Shown: one piece after another, positions 24,006-40,606 of the stretch
Layout: every line of letters begins with the position of its first letter
Position numbering within the stretch: position 1 is the stretch's first letter
Source: Escherichia phage T7
Sequence record: LR745708
Reading direction: 5' to 3' (one strand)
Length of the DNA: 40,606 bases
Notes under the pieces: model-generated
Database searches by the model: none
What the model was told of the DNA's origin: nothing
What the model saw: only the letters and a program-made list of their open reading frames with translations
Made by a program: the position numbers and the translations under genes

Positions 24006-24160
24006 TGCTGGGGGTGGCCTCAACGGTCGCTGCTAGTCCCGAAGAGGCGAGTGTTACTTCAACAGAAGAAACCTTAACGCCAGCACAGGAGGCCGCACGC
24101 ACCCGCGCTGCTAACAAAGCCCGAAAGGAAGCTGAGTTGGCTGCTGCCACCGCTGAGTAA
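22968..24160 (+). CDS. 10B: Gene 10B minor capsid protein (-1 frameshift extension of 10A)
   Basis: Shifting to the -1 frame at the GGTTTTC region (~23988-23993) gives ...FQSGVMLGVASTVAASPEEASVTSTEETLTPAQEAARTRAANKARKEAELAAATAE, ending at TAA 24158-24160. Confidence 0.8.
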
Positions 24161-24842: not shown

Positions 24843-27227
24843 ATGGCACTCATTAGCCAATCAATCAAGAACTTGAGGGGTGGTATCAGCCAACAGCCTG
24901 ACATCCTTCGTTATCCAGACCAAGGGTCACGCCAAGTTAACGGTTGGTCTTCGGAGACCGAGGGCCTCCAAAAGCGTCCACCTCTTGTTTTCTTAAATAC
25001 ACTTGGAGACAACGGTGCGTTAGGTCAAGCTCCGTACATCCACCTGATTAACCGAGATGAGCACGAACAGTATTACGCTGTGTTCACTGGTAGCGGAATC
25101 CGAGTGTTCGACCTTTCTGGTAACGAGAAGCAAGTTAGGTATCCTAACGGTTCCAACTACATCAAGACCGCTAATCCACGTAACGACCTGCGAATGGTTA
25201 CTGTAGCAGACTATACGTTCATCGTTAACCGTAACGTTGTTGCACAGAAGAACACAAAGTCTGTCAACTTACCGAATTACAACCCTAATCAAGACGGATT
25301 GATTAACGTTCGTGGTGGTCAGTATGGTAGGGAACTAATTGTACACATTAACGGTAAAGACGTTGCGAAGTATAAGATACCAGATGGTAGTCAACCTGAA
25401 CACGTAAACAATACGGATGCCCAATGGTTAGCTGAAGAGTTAGCCAAGCAGATGCGCACTAACTTGTCTGATTGGACTGTAAATGTAGGGCAAGGGTTCA
25501 TCCATGTGACCGCACCTAGTGGTCAACAGATTGACTCCTTCACGACTAAAGATGGCTACGCAGACCAGTTGATTAACCCTGTGACCCACTACGCTCAGTC
25601 GTTCTCTAAGCTGCCACCTAATGCTCCTAACGGCTACATGGTGAAAATCGTAGGGGACGCCTCTAAGTCTGCCGACCAGTATTACGTTCGGTATGACGCT
25701 GAGCGGAAAGTTTGGACTGAGACTTTAGGTTGGAACACTGAGGACCAAGTTCTATGGGAAACCATGCCACACGCTCTTGTGCGAGCCGCTGACGGTAATT
25801 TCGACTTCAAGTGGCTTGAGTGGTCTCCTAAGTCTTGTGGTGACGTTGACACCAACCCTTGGCCTTCTTTTGTTGGTTCAAGTATTAACGATGTGTTCTT
25901 CTTCCGTAACCGCTTAGGATTCCTTAGTGGGGAGAACATCATATTGAGTCGTACAGCCAAATACTTCAACTTCTACCCTGCGTCCATTGCGAACCTTAGT
26001 GATGACGACCCTATAGACGTAGCTGTGAGTACCAACCGAATAGCAATCCTTAAGTACGCCGTTCCGTTCTCAGAAGAGTTACTCATCTGGTCCGATGAAG
26101 CACAATTCGTCCTGACTGCCTCGGGTACTCTCACATCTAAGTCGGTTGAGTTGAACCTAACGACCCAGTTTGACGTACAGGACCGAGCGAGACCTTTTGG
26201 GATTGGGCGTAATGTCTACTTTGCTAGTCCGAGGTCCAGCTTCACGTCCATCCACAGGTACTACGCTGTGCAGGATGTCAGTTCCGTTAAGAATGCTGAG
26301 GACATTACATCACACGTTCCTAACTACATCCCTAATGGTGTGTTCAGTATTTGCGGAAGTGGTACGGAAAACTTCTGTTCGGTACTATCTCACGGGGACC
26401 CTAGTAAAATCTTCATGTACAAATTCCTGTACCTGAACGAAGAGTTAAGGCAACAGTCGTGGTCTCATTGGGACTTTGGGGAAAACGTACAGGTTCTAGC
26501 TTGTCAGAGTATCAGCTCAGATATGTATGTGATTCTTCGCAATGAGTTCAATACGTTCCTAGCTAGAATCTCTTTCACTAAGAACGCCATTGACTTACAG
26601 GGAGAACCCTATCGTGCCTTTATGGACATGAAGATTCGATACACGATTCCTAGTGGAACATACAACGATGACACATTCACTACCTCTATTCATATTCCAA
26701 CAATTTATGGTGCAAACTTCGGGAGGGGCAAAATCACTGTATTGGAGCCTGATGGTAAGATAACCGTGTTTGAGCAACCTACGGCTGGGTGGAATAGCGA
26801 CCCTTGGCTGAGACTCAGCGGTAACTTGGAGGGACGCATGGTGTACATTGGGTTCAACATTAACTTCGTATATGAGTTCTCTAAGTTCCTCATCAAGCAG
26901 ACTGCCGACGACGGGTCTACCTCCACGGAAGACATTGGGCGCTTACAGTTACGCCGAGCGTGGGTTAACTACGAGAACTCTGGTACGTTTGACATTTATG
27001 TTGAGAACCAATCGTCTAACTGGAAGTACACAATGGCTGGTGCCCGATTAGGCTCTAACACTCTGAGGGCTGGGAGACTGAACTTAGGGACCGGACAATA
27101 TCGATTCCCTGTGGTTGGTAACGCCAAGTTCAACACTGTATACATCTTGTCAGATGAGACTACCCCTCTGAACATCATTGGGTGTGGCTGGGAAGGTAAC
27201 TACTTACGGAGAAGTTCCGGTATTTAA
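24843..27227 (+). CDS. 12: Gene 12 tail tubular protein B
   Basis: 794-aa ORF MALISQSIKNLRGGISQQPD... Confidence 0.95.
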   Translation: MALISQSIKNLRGGISQQPDILRYPDQGSRQVNGWSSETEGLQKRPPLVFLNTLGDNGALGQAPYIHLINRDEHEQYYAVFTGSGIRVFDLSGNEKQVRYPNGSNYIKTANPRNDLRMVTVADYTFIVNRNVVAQKNTKSVNLPNYNPNQDGLINVRGGQYGRELIVHINGKDVAKYKIPDGSQPEHVNNTDAQWLAEELAKQMRTNLSDWTVNVGQGFIHVTAPSGQQIDSFTTKDGYADQLINPVTHYAQSFSKLPPNAPNGYMVKIVGDASKSADQYYVRYDAERKVWTETLGWNTEDQVLWETMPHALVRAADGNFDFKWLEWSPKSCGDVDTNPWPSFVGSSINDVFFFRNRLGFLSGENIILSRTAKYFNFYPASIANLSDDDPIDVAVSTNRIAILKYAVPFSEELLIWSDEAQFVLTASGTLTSKSVELNLTTQFDVQDRARPFGIGRNVYFASPRSSFTSIHRYYAVQDVSSVKNAEDITSHVPNYIPNGVFSICGSGTENFCSVLSHGDPSKIFMYKFLYLNEELRQQSWSHWDFGENVQVLACQSISSDMYVILRNEFNTFLARISFTKNAIDLQGEPYRAFMDMKIRYTIPSGTYNDDTFTTSIHIPTIYGANFGRGKITVLEPDGKITVFEQPTAGWNSDPWLRLSGNLEGRMVYIGFNINFVYEFSKFLIKQTADDGSTSTEDIGRLQLRRAWVNYENSGTFDIYVENQSSNWKYTMAGARLGSNTLRAGRLNLGTGQYRFPVVGNAKFNTVYILSDETTPLNIIGCGWEGNYLRRSSGI

Positions 27228-33500: not shown

Positions 33501-34552
33501 TAGGGACCTTGAAGTATTCAACACAGGAACTGGCTGCTCGCTCTCCGTGGACTAAGCTACTGAACGGAACCACTAACTACCTTCTGGATGCTGCGCGTCA
33601 AGGTATGCTTGGGGATGTTATTAGTGCCACCCTAACAGGTAAGACTACCCGCTGGGAGAAAGAAGGCTTCCTTCGTGGTGCCTCCGTAACTCCTGAGCAG
33701 ATGGCTGGCATCAAGTCTCTCATCAAGGAACATATGGTACGCGGTGAGGACGGGAAGTTTACCGTTAAGGACAAGCAAGCGTTCTCTATGGACCCACGGG
33801 CTATGGACTTATGGAGACTGGCTGACAAGGTAGCTGATGAGGCAATGCTGCGTCCACATAAGGTGTCCTTACAGGATTCCCATGCGTTCGGAGCACTAGG
33901 TAAGATGGTTATGCAGTTTAAGTCTTTCACTATCAAGTCCCTTAACTCTAAGTTCCTGCGAACCTTCTATGATGGATACAAGAACAACCGAGCGATTGAC
34001 GCTGCGCTGAGCATCATCACCTCTATGGGTCTCGCTGGTGGTTTCTATGCTATGGCTGCACACGTCAAAGCATACGCTCTGCCTAAGGAGAAACGTAAGG
34101 AGTACTTGGAGCGTGCACTGGACCCAACCATGATTGCCCACGCTGCGTTATCTCGTAGTTCTCAATTGGGTGCTCCTTTGGCTATGGTTGACCTAGTTGG
34201 TGGTGTTTTAGGGTTCGAGTCCTCCAAGATGGCTCGCTCTACGATTCTACCTAAGGACACCGTGAAGGAACGTGACCCAAACAAACCGTACACCTCTAGA
34301 GAGGTAATGGGCGCTATGGGTTCAAACCTTCTGGAACAGATGCCTTCGGCTGGCTTTGTGGCTAACGTAGGGGCTACCTTAATGAATGCTGCTGGCGTGG
34401 TCAACTCACCTAATAAAGCAACCGAGCAGGACTTCATGACTGGTCTTATGAACTCCACAAAAGAGTTAGTACCGAACGACCCATTGACTCAACAGCTTGT
34501 GTTGAAGATTTATGAGGCGAACGGTGTTAACTTGAGGGAGCGTAGGAAATAA
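30596..34552 (+). CDS. 16: Gene 16 internal virion protein D (N-terminal lytic transglycosylase domain)
   Basis: 1318-aa ORF; N-terminus has an SLT-like motif (...VAWTESRF...GPLGMMQF...). Confidence 0.95.
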   Translation: MDKYDKNVPSDYDGLFQKAADANGVSYDLLRKVAWTESRFVPTAKSKTGPLGMMQFTKATAKALGLRVTDGPDDDRLNPELAINAAAKQLAGLVGKFDGDELKAALAYNQGEGRLGNPQLEAYSKGDFASISEEGRNYMRNLLDVAKSPMAGQLETFGGITPKGKGIPAEVGLAGIGHKQKVTQELPESTSFDVKGIEQEATAKPFAKDFWETHGETLDEYNSRSTFFGFKNAAEAELSNSVAGMAFRAGRLDNGFDVFKDTITPTRWNSHIWTPEELEKIRTEVKNPAYINVVTGGSPENLDDLIKLANENFENDSRAAEAGLGAKLSAGIIGAGVDPLSYVPMVGVTGKGFKLINKALVVGAESAALNVASEGLRTSVAGGDADYAGAALGGFVFGAGMSAISDAVAAGLKRSKPEAEFDNEFIGPMMRLEARETARNANSADLSRMNTENMKFEGEHNGVPYEDLPTERGAVVLHDGSVLSASNPINPKTLKEFSEVDPEKAARGIKLAGFTEIGLKTLGSDDADIRRVAIDLVRSPTGMQSGASGKFGATASDIHERLHGTDQRTYNDLYKAMSDAMKDPEFSTGGAKMSREETRYTIYRRAALAIERPELQKALTPSERIVMDIIKRHFDTKRELMENPAIFGNTKAVSIFPESRHKGTYVPHVYDRHAKALMIQRYGAEGLQEGIARSWMNSYVSRPEVKARVDEMLKELHGVKEVTPEMVEKYAMDKAYGISHSDQFTNSSIIEENIEGLVGIENNSFLEARNLFDSDLSITMPDGQQFSVNDLRDFDMFRIMPAYDRRVNGDIAIMGSTGKTTKELKDEILALKAKAEGDGKKTGEVHALMDTVKILTGRARRNQDTVWETSLRAINDLGFFAKNAYMGAQNITEIAGMIVTGNVRALGHGIPILRDTLYKSKPVSAKELKELHASLFGKEVDQLIRPKRADIVQRLREATDTGPAVANIVGTLKYSTQELAARSPWTKLLNGTTNYLLDAARQGMLGDVISATLTGKTTRWEKEGFLRGASVTPEQMAGIKSLIKEHMVRGEDGKFTVKDKQAFSMDPRAMDLWRLADKVADEAMLRPHKVSLQDSHAFGALGKMVMQFKSFTIKSLNSKFLRTFYDGYKNNRAIDAALSIITSMGLAGGFYAMAAHVKAYALPKEKRKEYLERALDPTMIAHAALSRSSQLGAPLAMVDLVGGVLGFESSKMARSTILPKDTVKERDPNKPYTSREVMGAMGSNLLEQMPSAGFVANVGATLMNAAGVVNSPNKATEQDFMTGLMNSTKELVPNDPLTQQLVLKIYEANGVNLRERRK

Positions 34553-34572
34553 TACGACTCACTATAGGGAGA
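34550..34572 (+). promoter_or_regulatory. T7 promoter phi17
   Basis: taatacgactcactatagggaga overlapping the gene 16 stop. Confidence 0.9.
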
Positions 34573-34624
34573 GGCGAAATAATCTTCTCCCTGTAGTCTC
34601 TTAGATTTACTTTAAGGAGGTCAA

Positions 34625-36682
34625 ATGGCTAACGTAATTAAAACCGTTTTGACTTACCAGTTAGATGGCTCCAATCGTGATTTTAATATCCCGTTTGAGT
34701 ATCTAGCCCGTAAGTTCGTAGTGGTAACTCTTATTGGTGTAGACCGAAAGGTCCTTACGATTAATACAGACTATCGCTTTGCTACACGTACTACTATCTC
34801 TCTGACAAAGGCTTGGGGTCCAGCCGATGGCTACACGACCATCGAGTTACGTCGAGTAACCTCCACTACCGACCGATTGGTTGACTTTACGGATGGTTCA
34901 ATCCTCCGCGCGTATGACCTTAACGTCGCTCAGATTCAAACGATGCACGTAGCGGAAGAGGCCCGTGACCTCACTACGGATACTATCGGTGTCAATAACG
35001 ATGGTCACTTGGATGCTCGTGGTCGTCGAATTGTGAACCTAGCGAACGCCGTGGATGACCGCGATGCTGTTCCGTTTGGTCAACTAAAGACCATGAACCA
35101 GAACTCATGGCAAGCACGTAATGAAGCCTTACAGTTCCGTAATGAGGCTGAGACTTTCAGAAACCAAGCGGAGGGCTTTAAGAACGAGTCCAGTACCAAC
35201 GCTACGAACACAAAGCAGTGGCGCGATGAGACCAAGGGTTTCCGAGACGAAGCCAAGCGGTTCAAGAATACGGCTGGTCAATACGCTACATCTGCTGGGA
35301 ACTCTGCTTCCGCTGCGCATCAATCTGAGGTAAACGCTGAGAACTCTGCCACAGCATCCGCTAACTCTGCTCATTTGGCAGAACAGCAAGCAGACCGTGC
35401 GGAACGTGAGGCAGACAAGCTGGAAAATTACAATGGATTGGCTGGTGCAATTGATAAGGTAGATGGAACCAATGTGTACTGGAAAGGAAATATTCACGCT
35501 AACGGGCGCCTTTACATGACCACAAACGGTTTTGACTGTGGCCAGTATCAACAGTTCTTTGGTGGTGTCACTAATCGTTACTCTGTCATGGAGTGGGGAG
35601 ATGAGAACGGATGGCTGATGTATGTTCAACGTAGAGAGTGGACAACAGCGATAGGCGGTAACATCCAGTTAGTAGTAAACGGACAGATCATCACCCAAGG
35701 TGGAGCCATGACCGGTCAGCTAAAATTGCAGAATGGGCATGTTCTTCAATTAGAGTCCGCATCCGACAAGGCGCACTATATTCTATCTAAAGATGGTAAC
35801 AGGAATAACTGGTACATTGGTAGAGGGTCAGATAACAACAATGACTGTACCTTCCACTCCTATGTACATGGTACGACCTTAACACTCAAGCAGGACTATG
35901 CAGTAGTTAACAAACACTTCCACGTAGGTCAGGCCGTTGTGGCCACTGATGGTAATATTCAAGGTACTAAGTGGGGAGGTAAATGGCTGGATGCTTACCT
36001 ACGTGACAGCTTCGTTGCGAAGAACGAATACAGCCTGTGGGACATCAAGTTTCGCCCGGCTGCGCTCGACCCGCGCGGCATGACGCTGGTTGCCGGCGCG
36101 TTTTGGGCAGACATCTATCTGCTAGGCGTCAACCACCTGACCGATGGCACCAGCAAATACAACGTGACAATTGCAGATGGTAGTGCATCACCTAAGAAAT
36201 CTACCAAGTTCGGTGGAGACGGCAGCGCGGCCTACAGTGACGGAGCTTGGTACAACTTCGCTGAGGTCATGACTCATCACGGTAAGCGCCTGCCTAACTA
36301 CAACGAATTCCAGGCGCTGGCTTTCGGCACGACCGAGGCTACGTCCAGCGGCGGCACCGACGTGCCCACCACCGGCGTGAACGGCACGGGCGCAACGAGT
36401 GCGTGGAACATCTTCACGTCCAAGTGGGGCGTTGTGCAGGCGTCCGGTTGCTTGTGGACGTGGGGTAACGAGTTCGGCGGCGTGAATGGCGCATCCGAAT
36501 ACACGGCCAACACTGGCGGCAGAGGATCGGTGTACGCCCAGCCCGCTGCTGCGCTATTCGGCGGCGCCTGGAACGGCACGTCGCTCTCGGGTTCTCGCGC
36601 TGCGCTCTGGTACAGCGGGCCGTCGTTCTCGTTCGCGTTCTTCGGGGCGCGCGGCGTCTGTGACCACCTGATTCTTGAGTAG
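34625..36682 (+). CDS. 17: Chimeric tail-fibre protein: T7 gp17 residues 1-466 fused to a heterologous ~219-aa C-terminal receptor-binding domain (Mtd-like C-type-lectin fold with DGR variable region)
   Basis: 685-aa ORF against 553 aa for native gp17 as I recall. Translation is T7 gp17 up to ...GGKWLDAYLRDSFVAK (codon 466, nt 36020-36022), then diverges into GC-rich sequence NEYSLWDIKFRPAALDPRGMTLVAGAFWADIYLLG...GARGVCDHLILE. Confidence 0.9.
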   Translation: MANVIKTVLTYQLDGSNRDFNIPFEYLARKFVVVTLIGVDRKVLTINTDYRFATRTTISLTKAWGPADGYTTIELRRVTSTTDRLVDFTDGSILRAYDLNVAQIQTMHVAEEARDLTTDTIGVNNDGHLDARGRRIVNLANAVDDRDAVPFGQLKTMNQNSWQARNEALQFRNEAETFRNQAEGFKNESSTNATNTKQWRDETKGFRDEAKRFKNTAGQYATSAGNSASAAHQSEVNAENSATASANSAHLAEQQADRAEREADKLENYNGLAGAIDKVDGTNVYWKGNIHANGRLYMTTNGFDCGQYQQFFGGVTNRYSVMEWGDENGWLMYVQRREWTTAIGGNIQLVVNGQIITQGGAMTGQLKLQNGHVLQLESASDKAHYILSKDGNRNNWYIGRGSDNNNDCTFHSYVHGTTLTLKQDYAVVNKHFHVGQAVVATDGNIQGTKWGGKWLDAYLRDSFVAKNEYSLWDIKFRPAALDPRGMTLVAGAFWADIYLLGVNHLTDGTSKYNVTIADGSASPKKSTKFGGDGSAAYSDGAWYNFAEVMTHHGKRLPNYNEFQALAFGTTEATSSGGTDVPTTGVNGTGATSAWNIFTSKWGVVQASGCLWTWGNEFGGVNGASEYTANTGGRGSVYAQPAAALFGGAWNGTSLSGSRAALWYSGPSFSFAFFGARGVCDHLILE
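36023..36682 (+). other. Heterologous graft within gene 17 (GC-rich; Mtd-like domain)
   Basis: Abrupt rise in G+C and change of codon usage relative to flanking T7 sequence; the encoded C-terminus ...AALFGGAWNGTSLSGSRAALWYSGPSFSFAFFGARGVCDHLILE resembles, from memory, the BPP-1 Mtd variable-region end. Confidence 0.65.
36544..36680 (+). other. Putative DGR variable region (VR) with IMH-like 3' end
   Basis: ~135-bp stretch that is strongly adenine-poor, with many NNC codons (gcc, aac, ggc, ctc, tac, agc, ttc x4), ending in a GC-only run (ggggcgcgcggcg) and tctgtgaccacctgattcttgag. Confidence 0.6.
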
Positions 36683-36701
36683 CGGGGCCGAAAGGCCCCG
36701 C
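36682..36701 (+). promoter_or_regulatory. GC-rich hairpin with GAAA loop straddling the gene 17 stop (DGR target-recognition hairpin/cruciform-like)
   Basis: gcggggcc-GAAA-ggccccgc: a perfect 8-bp stem with a 4-nt GAAA loop, directly readable. Confidence 0.7.
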
Positions 36702-36723
36702 CAAGGCAACCGTACTCGAACCA

Positions 36724-36760
36724 CTAGCCCGCTCTTATCGGGCGGCTAGGGGTTTTTTGT
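36724..36760 (+). terminator. Putative terminator-like element (imperfect hairpin + G4T6)
   Basis: ctagcccgctcttatcgggcggctag forms an imperfect stem, followed by gggttttttg, which mimics the tail of Tphi (gaggggttttttg). Confidence 0.4.
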
Positions 36761-36784
36761 GATTTACTTTAAGGAGGTCAAATG
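36761..36784 (+). promoter_or_regulatory. Duplicated gene 17 ribosome-binding site driving trxA
   Basis: gatttactttaaggaggtcaaATG at 36761-36784 is identical to 34604-34627, the native gene 17 RBS and start. Confidence 0.9.
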
Positions 36785-37111
36785 AGCGATAAAATCATTC
36801 ACCTGACCGATGACTCTTTTGATACCGACGTGCTGAAAGCTGATGGTGCAATTCTGGTTGATTTCTGGGCAGAGTGGTGCGGCCCTTGCAAAATGATCGC
36901 TCCAATCCTGGACGAAATTGCGGACGAATATCAGGGTAAGCTGACTGTGGCCAAACTGAACATTGACCAGAACCCTGGCACCGCACCGAAATACGGTATC
37001 CGTGGCATCCCAACTCTGCTGCTGTTCAAAAACGGTGAAGTGGCAGCAACCAAAGTAGGCGCTCTGTCTAAAGGCCAACTGAAAGAGTTCCTGGACGCCA
37101 ACCTGGCTTAA
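36782..37111 (+). CDS. trxA: Thioredoxin 1 (E. coli TrxA, identical protein), inserted into the phage genome
   Basis: 109-aa product [109 protein letters not shown] with the CGPC active site; not a T7 gene. Confidence 0.97.
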
Positions 37112-37172
37112 TGATTGGTAAATCACAAGGAAAGACGTGTAGTCCACGGATGGACTCTCAAGGAGGTACAAG

Positions 37173-37376
37173 GTGCTATCATTAGACTTTAACAACGAAT
37201 TGATTAAGGCTGCTCCAATTGTTGGGACGGGTGTAGCAGATGTTAGTGCTCGACTGTTCTTTGGGTTAAGCCTTAACGAATGGTTCTACGTTGCTGCTAT
37301 CGCCTACACAGTGGTTCAGATTGGTGCCAAGGTAGTCGATAAGATGATTGACTGGAAGAAAGCCAATAAGGAGTGA
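37173..37376 (+). CDS. 17.5: Gene 17.5 holin
   Basis: GTG at 37173 after AGGAGG; 67 aa with a hydrophobic core, MLSLDFNNELIKAAPIVGTGVADVSARLFFGL... Confidence 0.85.
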   Translation: MLSLDFNNELIKAAPIVGTGVADVSARLFFGLSLNEWFYVAAIAYTVVQIGAKVVDKMIDWKKANKE

Positions 37377-37381
37377 TATGT

Positions 37382-37651
37382 ATGGAAAAGGATAAGAGCC
37401 TTATTACATTCTTAGAGATGTTGGACACTGCGATGGCTCAGCGTATGCTTGCGGACCTTTCGGACCATGAGCGTCGCTCTCCGCAACTCTATAATGCTAT
37501 TAACAAACTGTTAGACCGCCACAAGTTCCAGATTGGTAAGTTGCAGCCGGATGTTCACATCTTAGGTGGCCTTGCTGGTGCTCTTGAAGAGTACAAAGAG
37601 AAAGTCGGTGATAACGGTCTTACGGATGATGATATTTACACATTACAGTGA
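37382..37651 (+). CDS. 18: Gene 18 terminase small subunit
   Basis: ATG at 37382; 89 aa MEKDKSLITFLEMLDTAMAQRM...; ORF-track start 37373 is an upstream extension. Confidence 0.85.
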   Translation: MEKDKSLITFLEMLDTAMAQRMLADLSDHERRSPQLYNAINKLLDRHKFQIGKLQPDVHILGGLAGALEEYKEKVGDNGLTDDDIYTLQ

Positions 37652-37692
37652 TATACTCAAGGCCACTACAGATAGTGGTCTTTATGGATGTC
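37652..37692 (+). promoter_or_regulatory. RNase III processing site R18.5
   Basis: tatactcaaggccactacagatagtggtctttatggatg hairpin motif. Confidence 0.5.
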
Positions 37693-37745
37693 ATTGTCTA
37701 TACGAGATGCTCCTACGTGAAATCTGAAAGTTAACGGGAGGCATT

Positions 37746-38177
37746 ATGCTAGAATTTTTACGTAAGCTAATCCCTTGGGTTCTCGCTGGGATGCTATTCG
37801 GGTTAGGATGGCATCTAGGGTCAGACTCAATGGACGCTAAATGGAAACAGGAGGTACACAATGAGTACGTTAAGAGAGTTGAGGCTGCGAAGAGCACTCA
37901 AAGAGCAATCGATGCGGTATCTGCTAAGTATCAAGAAGACCTTGCCGCGCTGGAAGGGAGCACTGATAGGATTATTTCTGATTTGCGTAGCGACAATAAG
38001 CGGTTGCGCGTCAGAGTCAAAACTACCGGAACCTCCGATGGTCAGTGTGGATTCGAGCCTGATGGTCGAGCCGAACTTGACGACCGAGATGCTAAACGTA
38101 TTCTCGCAGTGACCCAGAAGGGTGACGCATGGATTCGTGCGTTACAGGATACTATTCGTGAACTGCAACGTAAGTAG
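37746..38177 (+). CDS. 18.5: Gene 18.5 spanin (Rz-like, inner-membrane component)
   Basis: 143 aa with an N-terminal transmembrane segment (LIPWVLAGMLFGLGWHLG). Confidence 0.85.
   Translation: MLEFLRKLIPWVLAGMLFGLGWHLGSDSMDAKWKQEVHNEYVKRVEAAKSTQRAIDAVSAKYQEDLAALEGSTDRIISDLRSDNKRLRVRVKTTGTSDGQCGFEPDGRAELDDRDAKRILAVTQKGDAWIRALQDTIRELQRK
37861..38112 (+). CDS. 18.7: Gene 18.7 spanin (Rz1-like), embedded in 18.5 in another frame
   Basis: 83-aa ORF nested inside 18.5; contains a lipobox-like LICVATISGCAS. Confidence 0.7.
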   Translation: MSTLRELRLRRALKEQSMRYLLSIKKTLPRWKGALIGLFLICVATISGCASESKLPEPPMVSVDSSLMVEPNLTTEMLNVFSQ

Positions 38178-38198
38178 GAAATCAAGTAAGGAGGCAAT

Positions 38199-39959
38199 GT
38201 GTCTACTCAATCCAATCGTAATGCGCTCGTAGTGGCGCAACTGAAAGGAGACTTCGTGGCGTTCCTATTCGTCTTATGGAAGGCGCTAAACCTACCGGTG
38301 CCCACTAAGTGTCAGATTGACATGGCTAAGGTGCTGGCGAATGGAGACAACAAGAAGTTCATCTTACAGGCTTTCCGTGGTATCGGTAAGTCGTTCATCA
38401 CATGTGCGTTCGTTGTGTGGTCCTTATGGAGAGACCCTCAGTTGAAGATACTTATCGTATCAGCCTCTAAGGAGCGTGCAGACGCTAACTCCATCTTTAT
38501 TAAGAACATCATTGACCTGCTGCCATTCCTATCTGAGTTAAAGCCAAGACCCGGACAGCGTGACTCGGTAATCAGCTTTGATGTAGGCCCAGCCAATCCT
38601 GACCACTCTCCTAGTGTGAAATCAGTAGGTATCACTGGTCAGTTAACTGGTAGCCGTGCTGACATTATCATTGCGGATGACGTTGAGATTCCGTCTAACA
38701 GCGCAACTATGGGTGCCCGTGAGAAGCTATGGACTCTGGTTCAGGAGTTCGCTGCGTTACTTAAACCGCTGCCTTCCTCTCGCGTTATCTACCTTGGTAC
38801 ACCTCAGACAGAGATGACTCTCTATAAGGAACTTGAGGATAACCGTGGGTACACAACCATTATCTGGCCTGCTCTGTACCCAAGGACACGTGAAGAGAAC
38901 CTCTATTACTCACAGCGTCTTGCTCCTATGTTACGCGCTGAGTACGATGAGAACCCTGAGGCACTTGCTGGGACTCCAACAGACCCAGTGCGCTTTGACC
39001 GTGATGACCTGCGCGAGCGTGAGTTGGAATACGGTAAGGCTGGCTTTACGCTACAGTTCATGCTTAACCCTAACCTTAGTGATGCCGAGAAGTACCCGCT
39101 GAGGCTTCGTGACGCTATCGTAGCGGCCTTAGACTTAGAGAAGGCCCCAATGCATTACCAGTGGCTTCCGAACCGTCAGAACATCATTGAGGACCTTCCT
39201 AACGTTGGCCTTAAGGGTGATGACCTGCATACGTACCACGATTGTTCCAACAACTCAGGTCAGTACCAACAGAAGATTCTGGTCATTGACCCTAGTGGTC
39301 GCGGTAAGGACGAAACAGGTTACGCTGTGCTGTACACACTGAACGGTTACATCTACCTTATGGAAGCTGGAGGTTTCCGTGATGGCTACTCCGATAAGAC
39401 CCTTGAGTTACTCGCTAAGAAGGCAAAGCAATGGGGAGTCCAGACGGTTGTCTACGAGAGTAACTTCGGTGACGGTATGTTCGGTAAGGTATTCAGTCCT
39501 ATCCTTCTTAAACACCACAACTGTGCGATGGAAGAGATTCGTGCCCGTGGTATGAAAGAGATGCGTATTTGCGATACCCTTGAGCCAGTCATGCAGACTC
39601 ACCGCCTTGTAATTCGTGATGAGGTCATTAGGGCCGACTACCAGTCCGCTCGTGACGTAGACGGTAAGCATGACGTTAAGTACTCGTTGTTCTACCAGAT
39701 GACCCGTATCACTCGTGAGAAAGGCGCTCTGGCTCATGATGACCGATTGGATGCCCTTGCGTTAGGCATTGAGTATCTCCGTGAGTCCATGCAGTTGGAT
39801 TCCGTTAAGGTCGAGGGTGAAGTACTTGCTGACTTCCTTGAGGAACACATGATGCGTCCTACGGTTGCTGCTACGCATATCATTGAGATGTCTGTGGGAG
39901 GAGTTGATGTGTACTCTGAGGACGATGAGGGTTACGGTACGTCTTTCATTGAGTGGTGA
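38199..39959 (+). CDS. 19: Gene 19 terminase large subunit
   Basis: GTG at 38199 after AGGAGG; 586 aa [19 protein letters not shown]... Confidence 0.95.
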
Positions 39960-40040
39960 TTTATGCATTAGGACTGCATAGGGATGCACTATAGACCACG
40001 GATGGTCAGTTCTTTAAGTTACTGAAAAGACACGATAAAT

Positions 40041-40063
40041 TAATACGACTCACTATAGGGAGA
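40041..40063 (+). promoter_or_regulatory. T7 promoter phiOR
   Basis: taatacgactcactatagggaga. Confidence 0.9.
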
Positions 40064-40217
40064 GGAGGGACGAAAGGTTACTATATAGATACTGAATGAA
40101 TACTTATAGAGTGCATAAAGTATGCATAATGGTGTACCTAGAGTGACCTCTAAGAATGGTGATTATATTGTATTAGTATCACCTTAACTTAAGGACCAAC
40201 ATAAAGGGAGGAGACTC

Positions 40218-40367
40218 ATGTTCCGCTTATTGTTGAACCTACTGCGGCATAGAGTCACCTACCGATTTCTTGTGGTACTTTGTGCTGCCCTTGGGTACGC
40301 ATCTCTTACTGGAGACCTCAGTTCACTGGAGTCTGTCGTTTGCTCTATACTCACTTGTAGCGATTAG
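40218..40367 (+). CDS. 19.5: Gene 19.5
   Basis: ATG at 40218 after GGGAGGAG; 49 aa MFRLLLNLLRHRVTYRFLVVLCAALG... Confidence 0.7.
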   Translation: MFRLLLNLLRHRVTYRFLVVLCAALGYASLTGDLSSLESVVCSILTCSD

Positions 40368-40439
40368 GGTCTTCCTGACCGACTGATGGCTCACCGAGGG
40401 ATTCAGCGGTATGATTGCATCACACCACTTCATCCCTAT

Positions 40440-40606
40440 AGAGTCAAGTCCTAAGGTATACCCATAAAGAGCCTCTAATGGTCTATCCTAAGGTCTATAC
40501 CTAAAGATAGGCCATCCTATCAGTGTCACCTAAAGAGGGTCTTAGAGAGGGCCTATGGAGTTCCTATAGGGTCCTTTAAAATATACCATAAAAATCTGAG
40601 TGACTA
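40440..40606. repeat. Right-end short CCTAAAG-like repeat region, ending immediately before the right terminal repeat
   Basis: cctaaggt..., acctaaagataggcc, cacctaaagaggg repeats; window ends ...aaatctgagtgacta, the sequence I recall directly preceding the terminal repeat. Confidence 0.6.

Follow-up and report, generated by a model that had tools for sequence, protein, structure and literature searches.

The genome of an engineered T7 phage (sequence record LR745708) carries one ribosome-binding site and start codon twice, once at each end of a chimeric tail-fibre gene. Here, we asked where the second copy came from, what it does in its new position, and whether the resulting direct repeat could delete the gene that it encloses. 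The whole 40,606-nt stretch was analysed and is referred to below as the window. An exact-match search of the whole window placed GATTTACTTTAAGGAGGTCAAATG on the + strand at 34604-34627 and 36761-36784. The earlier note had claimed an exact 24-bp duplication at these positions that forms a direct repeat around the tail-fibre ORF, and the recount bears this out. There are only two copies, they agree at 24 of 24 positions, and they flank the chimeric gene 17 in the same orientation, 2157 bp apart from start to start with a spacer of 2133 bp between them. The repeat is exactly 24 bp long, as the flanking bases (A versus T on the left, GCT versus AGC on the right) do not permit extension by a single base. 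No further site with up to 2 mismatches was found on either strand of the whole window, and 0 of 100 dinucleotide-preserving shuffles contained a match to the 24-mer. By our own estimate, about 3e-6 exact 24-mer pairs would be expected by chance in a sequence of 40.6 kb. Wild-type T7 (V01146) has the 24-mer as a single copy at 34603-34626, with the gene 17 CDS starting at 34624. Among exact direct repeats of at least 20 bp in the window, this is the only one that wild-type T7 lacks.

The region containing both copies is laid out as follows.

34547-34573, + strand: promoter phi17, a T7 class III promoter that drives gene 17 (promoter family match; V01146 annotation at T7 34566).
34604-34627, + strand: repeat copy 1, the native gene 17 leader (21 nt, with the SD sequence TAAGGAGGT) and ATG, identical to V01146 34603-34626.
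34625-36022, + strand: T7 gene 17 codons 1-466, with the tail-attachment domain, shaft and trimerisation region, collinear with T7 up to 36021.
36023-36682, + strand: BPP-1 mtd codons ~163-381 and stop, partly recoded (96% identity to BPP-1 mtd).
36682-36712, + strand: native BPP-1 sequence downstream of mtd, ending in the BPP-1 alignment at the avd start position.
36713-36760, + strand: synthetic T7 RNA polymerase terminator from the library of Temme et al., 48 nt, matching the published string with C>A at 36723.
36761-36784, + strand: repeat copy 2, gene 17 leader and ATG, the predicted trxA translation initiation region; its left edge coincides with the point where the primer 'trxA g-block forward' begins to anneal.
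36782-37111, + strand: recoded E. coli trxA, the positive-selection marker, a 109-aa ORF whose protein is identical to E. coli TrxA.
37112-37172, + strand: second stop TGA (37112-37114, completing a TAA-TGA double stop), then wild-type T7 from 36286, leading into gene 17.5 at 37173.

This arrangement has a published source. Grigonyte et al. 2020 (Viruses 12:193, PMC7077284) constructed fusions of the T7 tail fibre through homologous recombination and used trxA for positive selection on E. coli ΔtrxA. The window is their phage phAG_3, the product of plasmid pAG_25, because the fusion point, the exact pAG_25 junction primers and an A>G SNV at T7 24876 all agree. phAG_3 is included in their Table S4, and the SNV is assigned to it in Table S6 (PMC7077284). 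The equivalent position of the window, 24877, is G. The recoded trxA agrees as well, and no structural difference from phAG_3 was found. The published primers TCGGCTGGCTTTGTGGCTAACG and ACCTCCTTGAGAGTCCATCCGTGG were placed on the window at 34346-34367 and 37144-37167, respectively. Compared with V01146, window positions 1-36022 correspond to 1-36021, apart from two substitutions and an A inserted at 1897, and positions 37115-40606 correspond to 36286-39777. Outside the engineered block, which spans 36023-37114, the two genomes are therefore separated by three small differences.

Project PRJEB35760 contains three sibling genomes, LR745706.1, LR745707.1 (a T7-Mtd chimera) and LR745709.1 (a T7-Yep-phi chimera, phPM). 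LR745707.1 was the nearest record in the searched collection, with 99.2% identity over 99% of a 3.2-kb query (window 34400-37600). Both LR745707.1 and LR745709.1 carry the same recoded trxA marker. The extra A at 1897 and the C>T at 24158 (both relative to V01146) are also present in LR745706.1, and are therefore ancestral to the laboratory's T7 stock. The right 160-bp terminal repeat is missing from the assembly, having been collapsed; the full genome would be ~40,766 bp, ~102% of wild-type length.

The gene between the two copies encodes a 685-aa fusion (34625-36682), in which the junction at 36022/36023 links residues 1-466 of gp17 to the C-terminal portion of Mtd (163-382 in the published design), the receptor-binding protein of Bordetella phage BPP-1. 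In the gp17 part, Pfam recognizes Phage_T7_tail at residues 1-162 and gp37_trimer at residues 371-464. The junction primer of pAG_25, 'mtd g-block forward', corresponds exactly to window 36003-36042, and the annotation note of LR745707.1 likewise describes a gp17-Mtd fusion. The mtd fragment differs from BPP-1 by 25 substitutions, all upstream of the variable repeat VR1 (window 36023-36543). Twenty-three replace G/C by A/T, fall in register on third codon positions and cluster at 36169-36295, and the remaining two (36521 and 36523) alter the first and third bases of a single codon. Judged from the substitution pattern, this is consistent with partial recoding for the synthesis of a GC-rich block.

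VR1 of the BPP-1 diversity-generating retroelement (DGR), at 36544-36677, is identical to reference BPP-1. It is followed at 36682-36701 by a hairpin with an 8-bp GC stem and a GAAA loop (RNA fold). The window thus has the features of a BPP-1-type DGR target, namely a 3' VR in the target gene and then a GC-rich GAAA-loop hairpin. The template repeat, avd and the reverse transcriptase are absent, as the window differs from T7 only at 36023-37114 and BPP-1 homology ends at 36712. The element is therefore a DGR target only, incapable of diversifying itself. In LR745709.1, the same 3' VR end and hairpin are grafted behind the Yep-phi stop codon (L002, about 2383-2455). These features suggest that the constructs were intended for diversification in trans, an aim that PMC7077284 does not state. 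All Mtd chimeras were non-infective and were propagated with wild-type gp17 supplied in trans (PMC7077284).

Between the BPP-1 segment and copy 2 lies the 48-nt terminator. In the part of PMC9256728 that quotes it as 'a T7 terminator from Temme et al.', the element agrees with the window at 47 of 48 positions. Native BPP-1 sequence was considered as another origin for these 48 nt, as the megablast alignment ran 10 nt into them, but was rejected because the aligned BPP-1 sequence continues into avd. No real match to the 48 nt was found in the plasmid collection. The single difference, C>A at 36723, introduces a mismatch close to the stem base, and the predicted hairpin energy falls in strength from -23.9 kcal/mol (design) to -17.9 kcal/mol (observed). 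Either a variant from synthesis or an adaptive weakening could account for it; the machine-read g-block in the supplement is ambiguous at that base. The element at 36713-36760 escaped a simple terminator scan, for which the A·G stem mismatch is the probable reason, and was recognized by RNA folding and by the string match to the literature. No T7 promoter was found in the window between 34573 and 40038, the next one being phiOR at 40038-40064. Transcription of trxA must therefore start from phi17 or from promoters upstream of it and read through 36713-36760. Holin gene 17.5, terminase genes 18 and 19, and gene 18.5 rely on the same read-through as trxA, with no promoter before phiOR.

How the gene 17 leader came to stand behind this terminator can be read from the published construction parts. 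The 'HR1-trxA-HR2 g-block' of Figure S7 runs from the end of gene 16 through phi17 and the gene 17 leader straight into ATG-trxA, followed by TAA-TGA and the gene 17 downstream region (PMC7077284). The g-block is an exact ORF swap of trxA for gene 17, which is how trxA acquired the leader of gene 17. Table S3 gives the primer 'trxA g-block forward' as GGCGGCTAGGGGTTTTTTGT continued by GATTTACTTTAAGGAGGTCAAATGAG (PMC7077284). It matches window 36741-36786 without a mismatch, indicating that the terminator-to-RBS junction is as designed. Its first 20 nt form the Gibson overlap with the terminator, and annealing begins with the first base of copy 2. The left edge of the repeat was thus set by primer design, and the right edge by the ATG that gene 17 and trxA have in common.

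The route has four steps. A synthetic block was first designed with the gene 17 leader, ATG, trxA, TAA-TGA and the gene 17 downstream flank. For pAG_25, trxA was then amplified from this block with a primer annealing from 21 nt upstream of the ATG, and the product was joined by Gibson assembly behind the mtd fragment and the synthetic T7 terminator. Finally, recombination into T7 used arms of ~90 bp, one covering the last part of gene 17 codons 1-466 and the other in the gene 17 downstream region. The native gene 17 leader was kept through the recombination, and the leader is therefore present twice. We consider it highly probable (about 95%) that the second 24-mer is a construction remnant that acts as the RBS and start codon of the trxA marker.

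The exact primer match bears directly on whether the repeat might have arisen without design. T7 is generally known to recombine readily at short homologies, and a duplication that occurred spontaneously or through phage-plasmid recombination during propagation might be imagined on that ground. However, the junction at 36741-36786 is identical to a published synthetic primer, and an independent sibling construct follows the same junction logic, leaving such an origin with hardly any probability. In that sibling, LR745707.1, the 24-mer also occurs twice, with 2085 bp between the copies, and is joined to ...GGCAACCG as in the pAG_23 primer. The same observations bear on the reading of the second copy as a short-read assembly artefact. 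The genome was assembled by SPAdes from Nextera reads, and its right terminal repeat was indeed collapsed, yet the reads exceed a 24-bp repeat in length, and such a repeat is incapable of producing a false 2-kb insertion. Moreover, the structure agrees with the design base for base, and LR745707.1 independently has this arrangement. An artefact is thus extremely improbable.

The construction-remnant reading also defines what kind of reuse took place. The earlier note had described the duplication as a design fingerprint in which a strong late RBS was reused. Reuse of the leader is established by the exact match to the published primer; a deliberate choice of a strong RBS is not, and inheritance through the ORF swap fits better. 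This preference rests on LR745709.1, which was made by a different route and has another RBS (…ACGATTAAGGAGGTAACCCATG) before the same trxA, without a repeat. The repeat was in effect already documented, since the 24-mer is printed in the primer list and g-block of PMC7077284, and it represents no new biology.

The SD sequence of copy 2, UAAGGAGGU, forms 9 perfect pairs with the 16S rRNA 3' end ACCUCCUUA (duplex energy -12.8 kcal/mol), and the spacer between the SD and the ATG at 36782 is 3 nt (CAA), which is short but is the native gene 17 spacing. RNA folding leaves this SD unpaired in the centroid structure, and the trxA start codon region is predicted to pair with downstream codons. According to the proposed mechanism, phi17 transcripts that pass the terminator at 36713-36760 would carry copy 2, whose 9-nt SD, 3 nt before the AUG, would recruit ribosomes to trxA and thereby permit phage growth on the ΔtrxA host. 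Expression may be modest, considering the predicted pairing of the start region and the T7 terminator just upstream. The EOP of wild-type T7 on ΔtrxA is ~1e-10, and the insert was present in every screened plaque (PMC7077284), so trxA must be expressed. This is indirect evidence that copy 2 initiates translation in vivo.

Table S2 names a different element, listing 'RBS (B0034)' for plasmids pAG_23 to pAG_32 (PMC7077284). According to this entry, trxA would be translated from B0034 and the 24-mer would be irrelevant to its expression. The sequence refutes this reading, to which we assign next to no probability: the B0034 core AAAGAGGAGAAA occurs nowhere in the window, and the interval from the terminator to the trxA ATG holds the gene 17 leader only. 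Table S2 is therefore inaccurate on the RBS, since it is the gene 17 leader that appears in the published primers and in the g-block. We infer that copy 2 is the sole element that initiates trxA translation.

The marker itself is recoded by 46 synonymous nucleotide changes, so that at the nucleotide level it is 86.1% identical to each of the 5426 complete E. coli genomes searched; the ORF matches Pfam Thioredoxin at 8e-35. The longest run of identity between recoded and native E. coli trxA is 32 nt. Recoding would limit recombination of trxA with the host copy. The trxA selection method of Kiro et al. 2014, as cited in PMC7077284, likewise places on the phage a host factor gene that T7 DNA polymerase requires for processivity, and selects on a ΔtrxA host. 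The window differs from the method as cited there in that trxA is recoded and is driven by a duplicate of the gene 17 leader that follows a T7 terminator.

With its origin and function assigned, the repeat can be considered as a site of deletion. The earlier note had predicted that recombination between the copies would give genomes lacking gene 17 but positive for trxA. We removed one repeat unit (2157 bp) in silico and obtained a genome of 38,449 nt. It is identical to LR745706.1 (phAG_7), in which trxA stands directly behind the gene 17 leader, except at position 24877, where the window has its private G. In phAG_7, gene 17 was replaced by trxA using a dedicated plasmid, pAG_29, and the phage was propagated with gp17 in trans (PMC7077284). 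As a mechanism the proposed deletion is sound, and its predicted product corresponds, but for one SNV, to an existing phage that can be propagated when the fibre is provided in trans. LR745706.1 was also considered as a spontaneous deletion derivative of the window phage and rejected, as it does not have the private SNV at 24877 and was made with its own plasmid.

This correspondence is the one point in favour of a designed excision, in which the repeats would have been placed deliberately as an excisable cassette to loop out gene 17, for the deletion product would have exactly the phAG_7 genotype. We regard this as very unlikely, because phAG_7 was built with pAG_29, the Yep-phi construct has a different RBS and no repeat, and the extent of the repeat is merely the annealing length of a primer. 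Excision is also unmentioned in PMC7077284.

Taking the repeat as a construction remnant, annealing-based T7 recombination or replication slippage could collapse its two 24-bp copies, with loss of the chimeric gene 17 and formation of a genome equal to phAG_7. Such deletion may occur at a measurable rate. The diagnostic junction would be CCCTGTAGTCTCTTA-GATTTACTTTAAGGAGGTCAAATG-AGCGATAAAATC, in which the leader region upstream of gene 17 is joined to trxA. In the authors' PCR screens of 10-30 plaques per construct, only the intended mutants were found (PMC7077284). A fibreless phenotype would not be new, since the Mtd chimeras are non-infective to begin with and depend on gp17 in trans for growth, and loss of the chimeric gene would therefore alter the phenotype little. 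Loss might even be favoured, because the chimera has retained its domains for tail attachment and trimerisation and could be a competitor of the functional fibre. We speculate that the chimeric fibre is dominant-negative under trans-complementation, that collapse of the repeat is selected so that phAG_3 stocks drift towards phAG_7-like genomes, and that C>A at 36723 is possibly adaptive, although we think this scenario doubtful. If it were true, the chimera, which is unable to bind E. coli, would be the competitor, and C>A at 36723 might restore the expression of trxA and of the terminase and lysis genes downstream.

The sibling record LR745707.1 shows peculiarities of its own. It encodes a 677-aa chimera in which Mtd starts with ...KFRPAA, and the record has no terminator before the RBS; this structure fits the design of pAG_23 and phAG_1. 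Its SNVs (742 T>C, changes around 1897-1904, and 19560 T>G) are those given to phAG_4 in Table S6. At gene 17 position 34974, it has an unlisted A>G relative to both the window and wild type (T118A by our own codon count). This looks like a labelling inconsistency together with an unreported mutation in the N-terminal region of the fibre.

For phage engineers, the locus illustrates that a native leader, when reused, leaves the cargo enclosed by a short direct repeat. A further point is that deposited sequences may contradict parts lists, here in the naming of B0034 where the gene 17 leader is found. As the window is a published synthetic construct, its oddities are not to be taken as natural biology.

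Deletion between short direct repeats has reportedly been studied in T7 itself, by Pierce, Kong and Masker in 1991 and by Kong and Masker in 1994, and is said to depend on repeat length. In those studies, the deletion frequency reportedly climbs steeply up to a repeat length of ~20 bp and is stimulated by double-strand breaks. The spacers are said to have been tens to hundreds of bp long and to have lain inside the ligase gene. The Masker substrates resemble the window in having short exact repeats around dispensable DNA; here, 2133 bp separate the two copies. The promoters of wild-type T7 provide a second comparison, as they constitute a dozen or more exact direct-repeat pairs of 23-30 bp, all of which the phage tolerates, and this tempers the concern about the engineered repeat. 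Two promoters share 26 bp at a distance of 1039 bp, for example, and another pair shares 30 bp at 4370 bp. Like the engineered repeat, these pairs are exact and have kilobase spacing, but they bracket essential genes, so that deletions between them are lost. The engineered 24-bp repeat, unlike the promoter repeats, encloses a gene that the phage can lose as long as gp17 is provided in trans.
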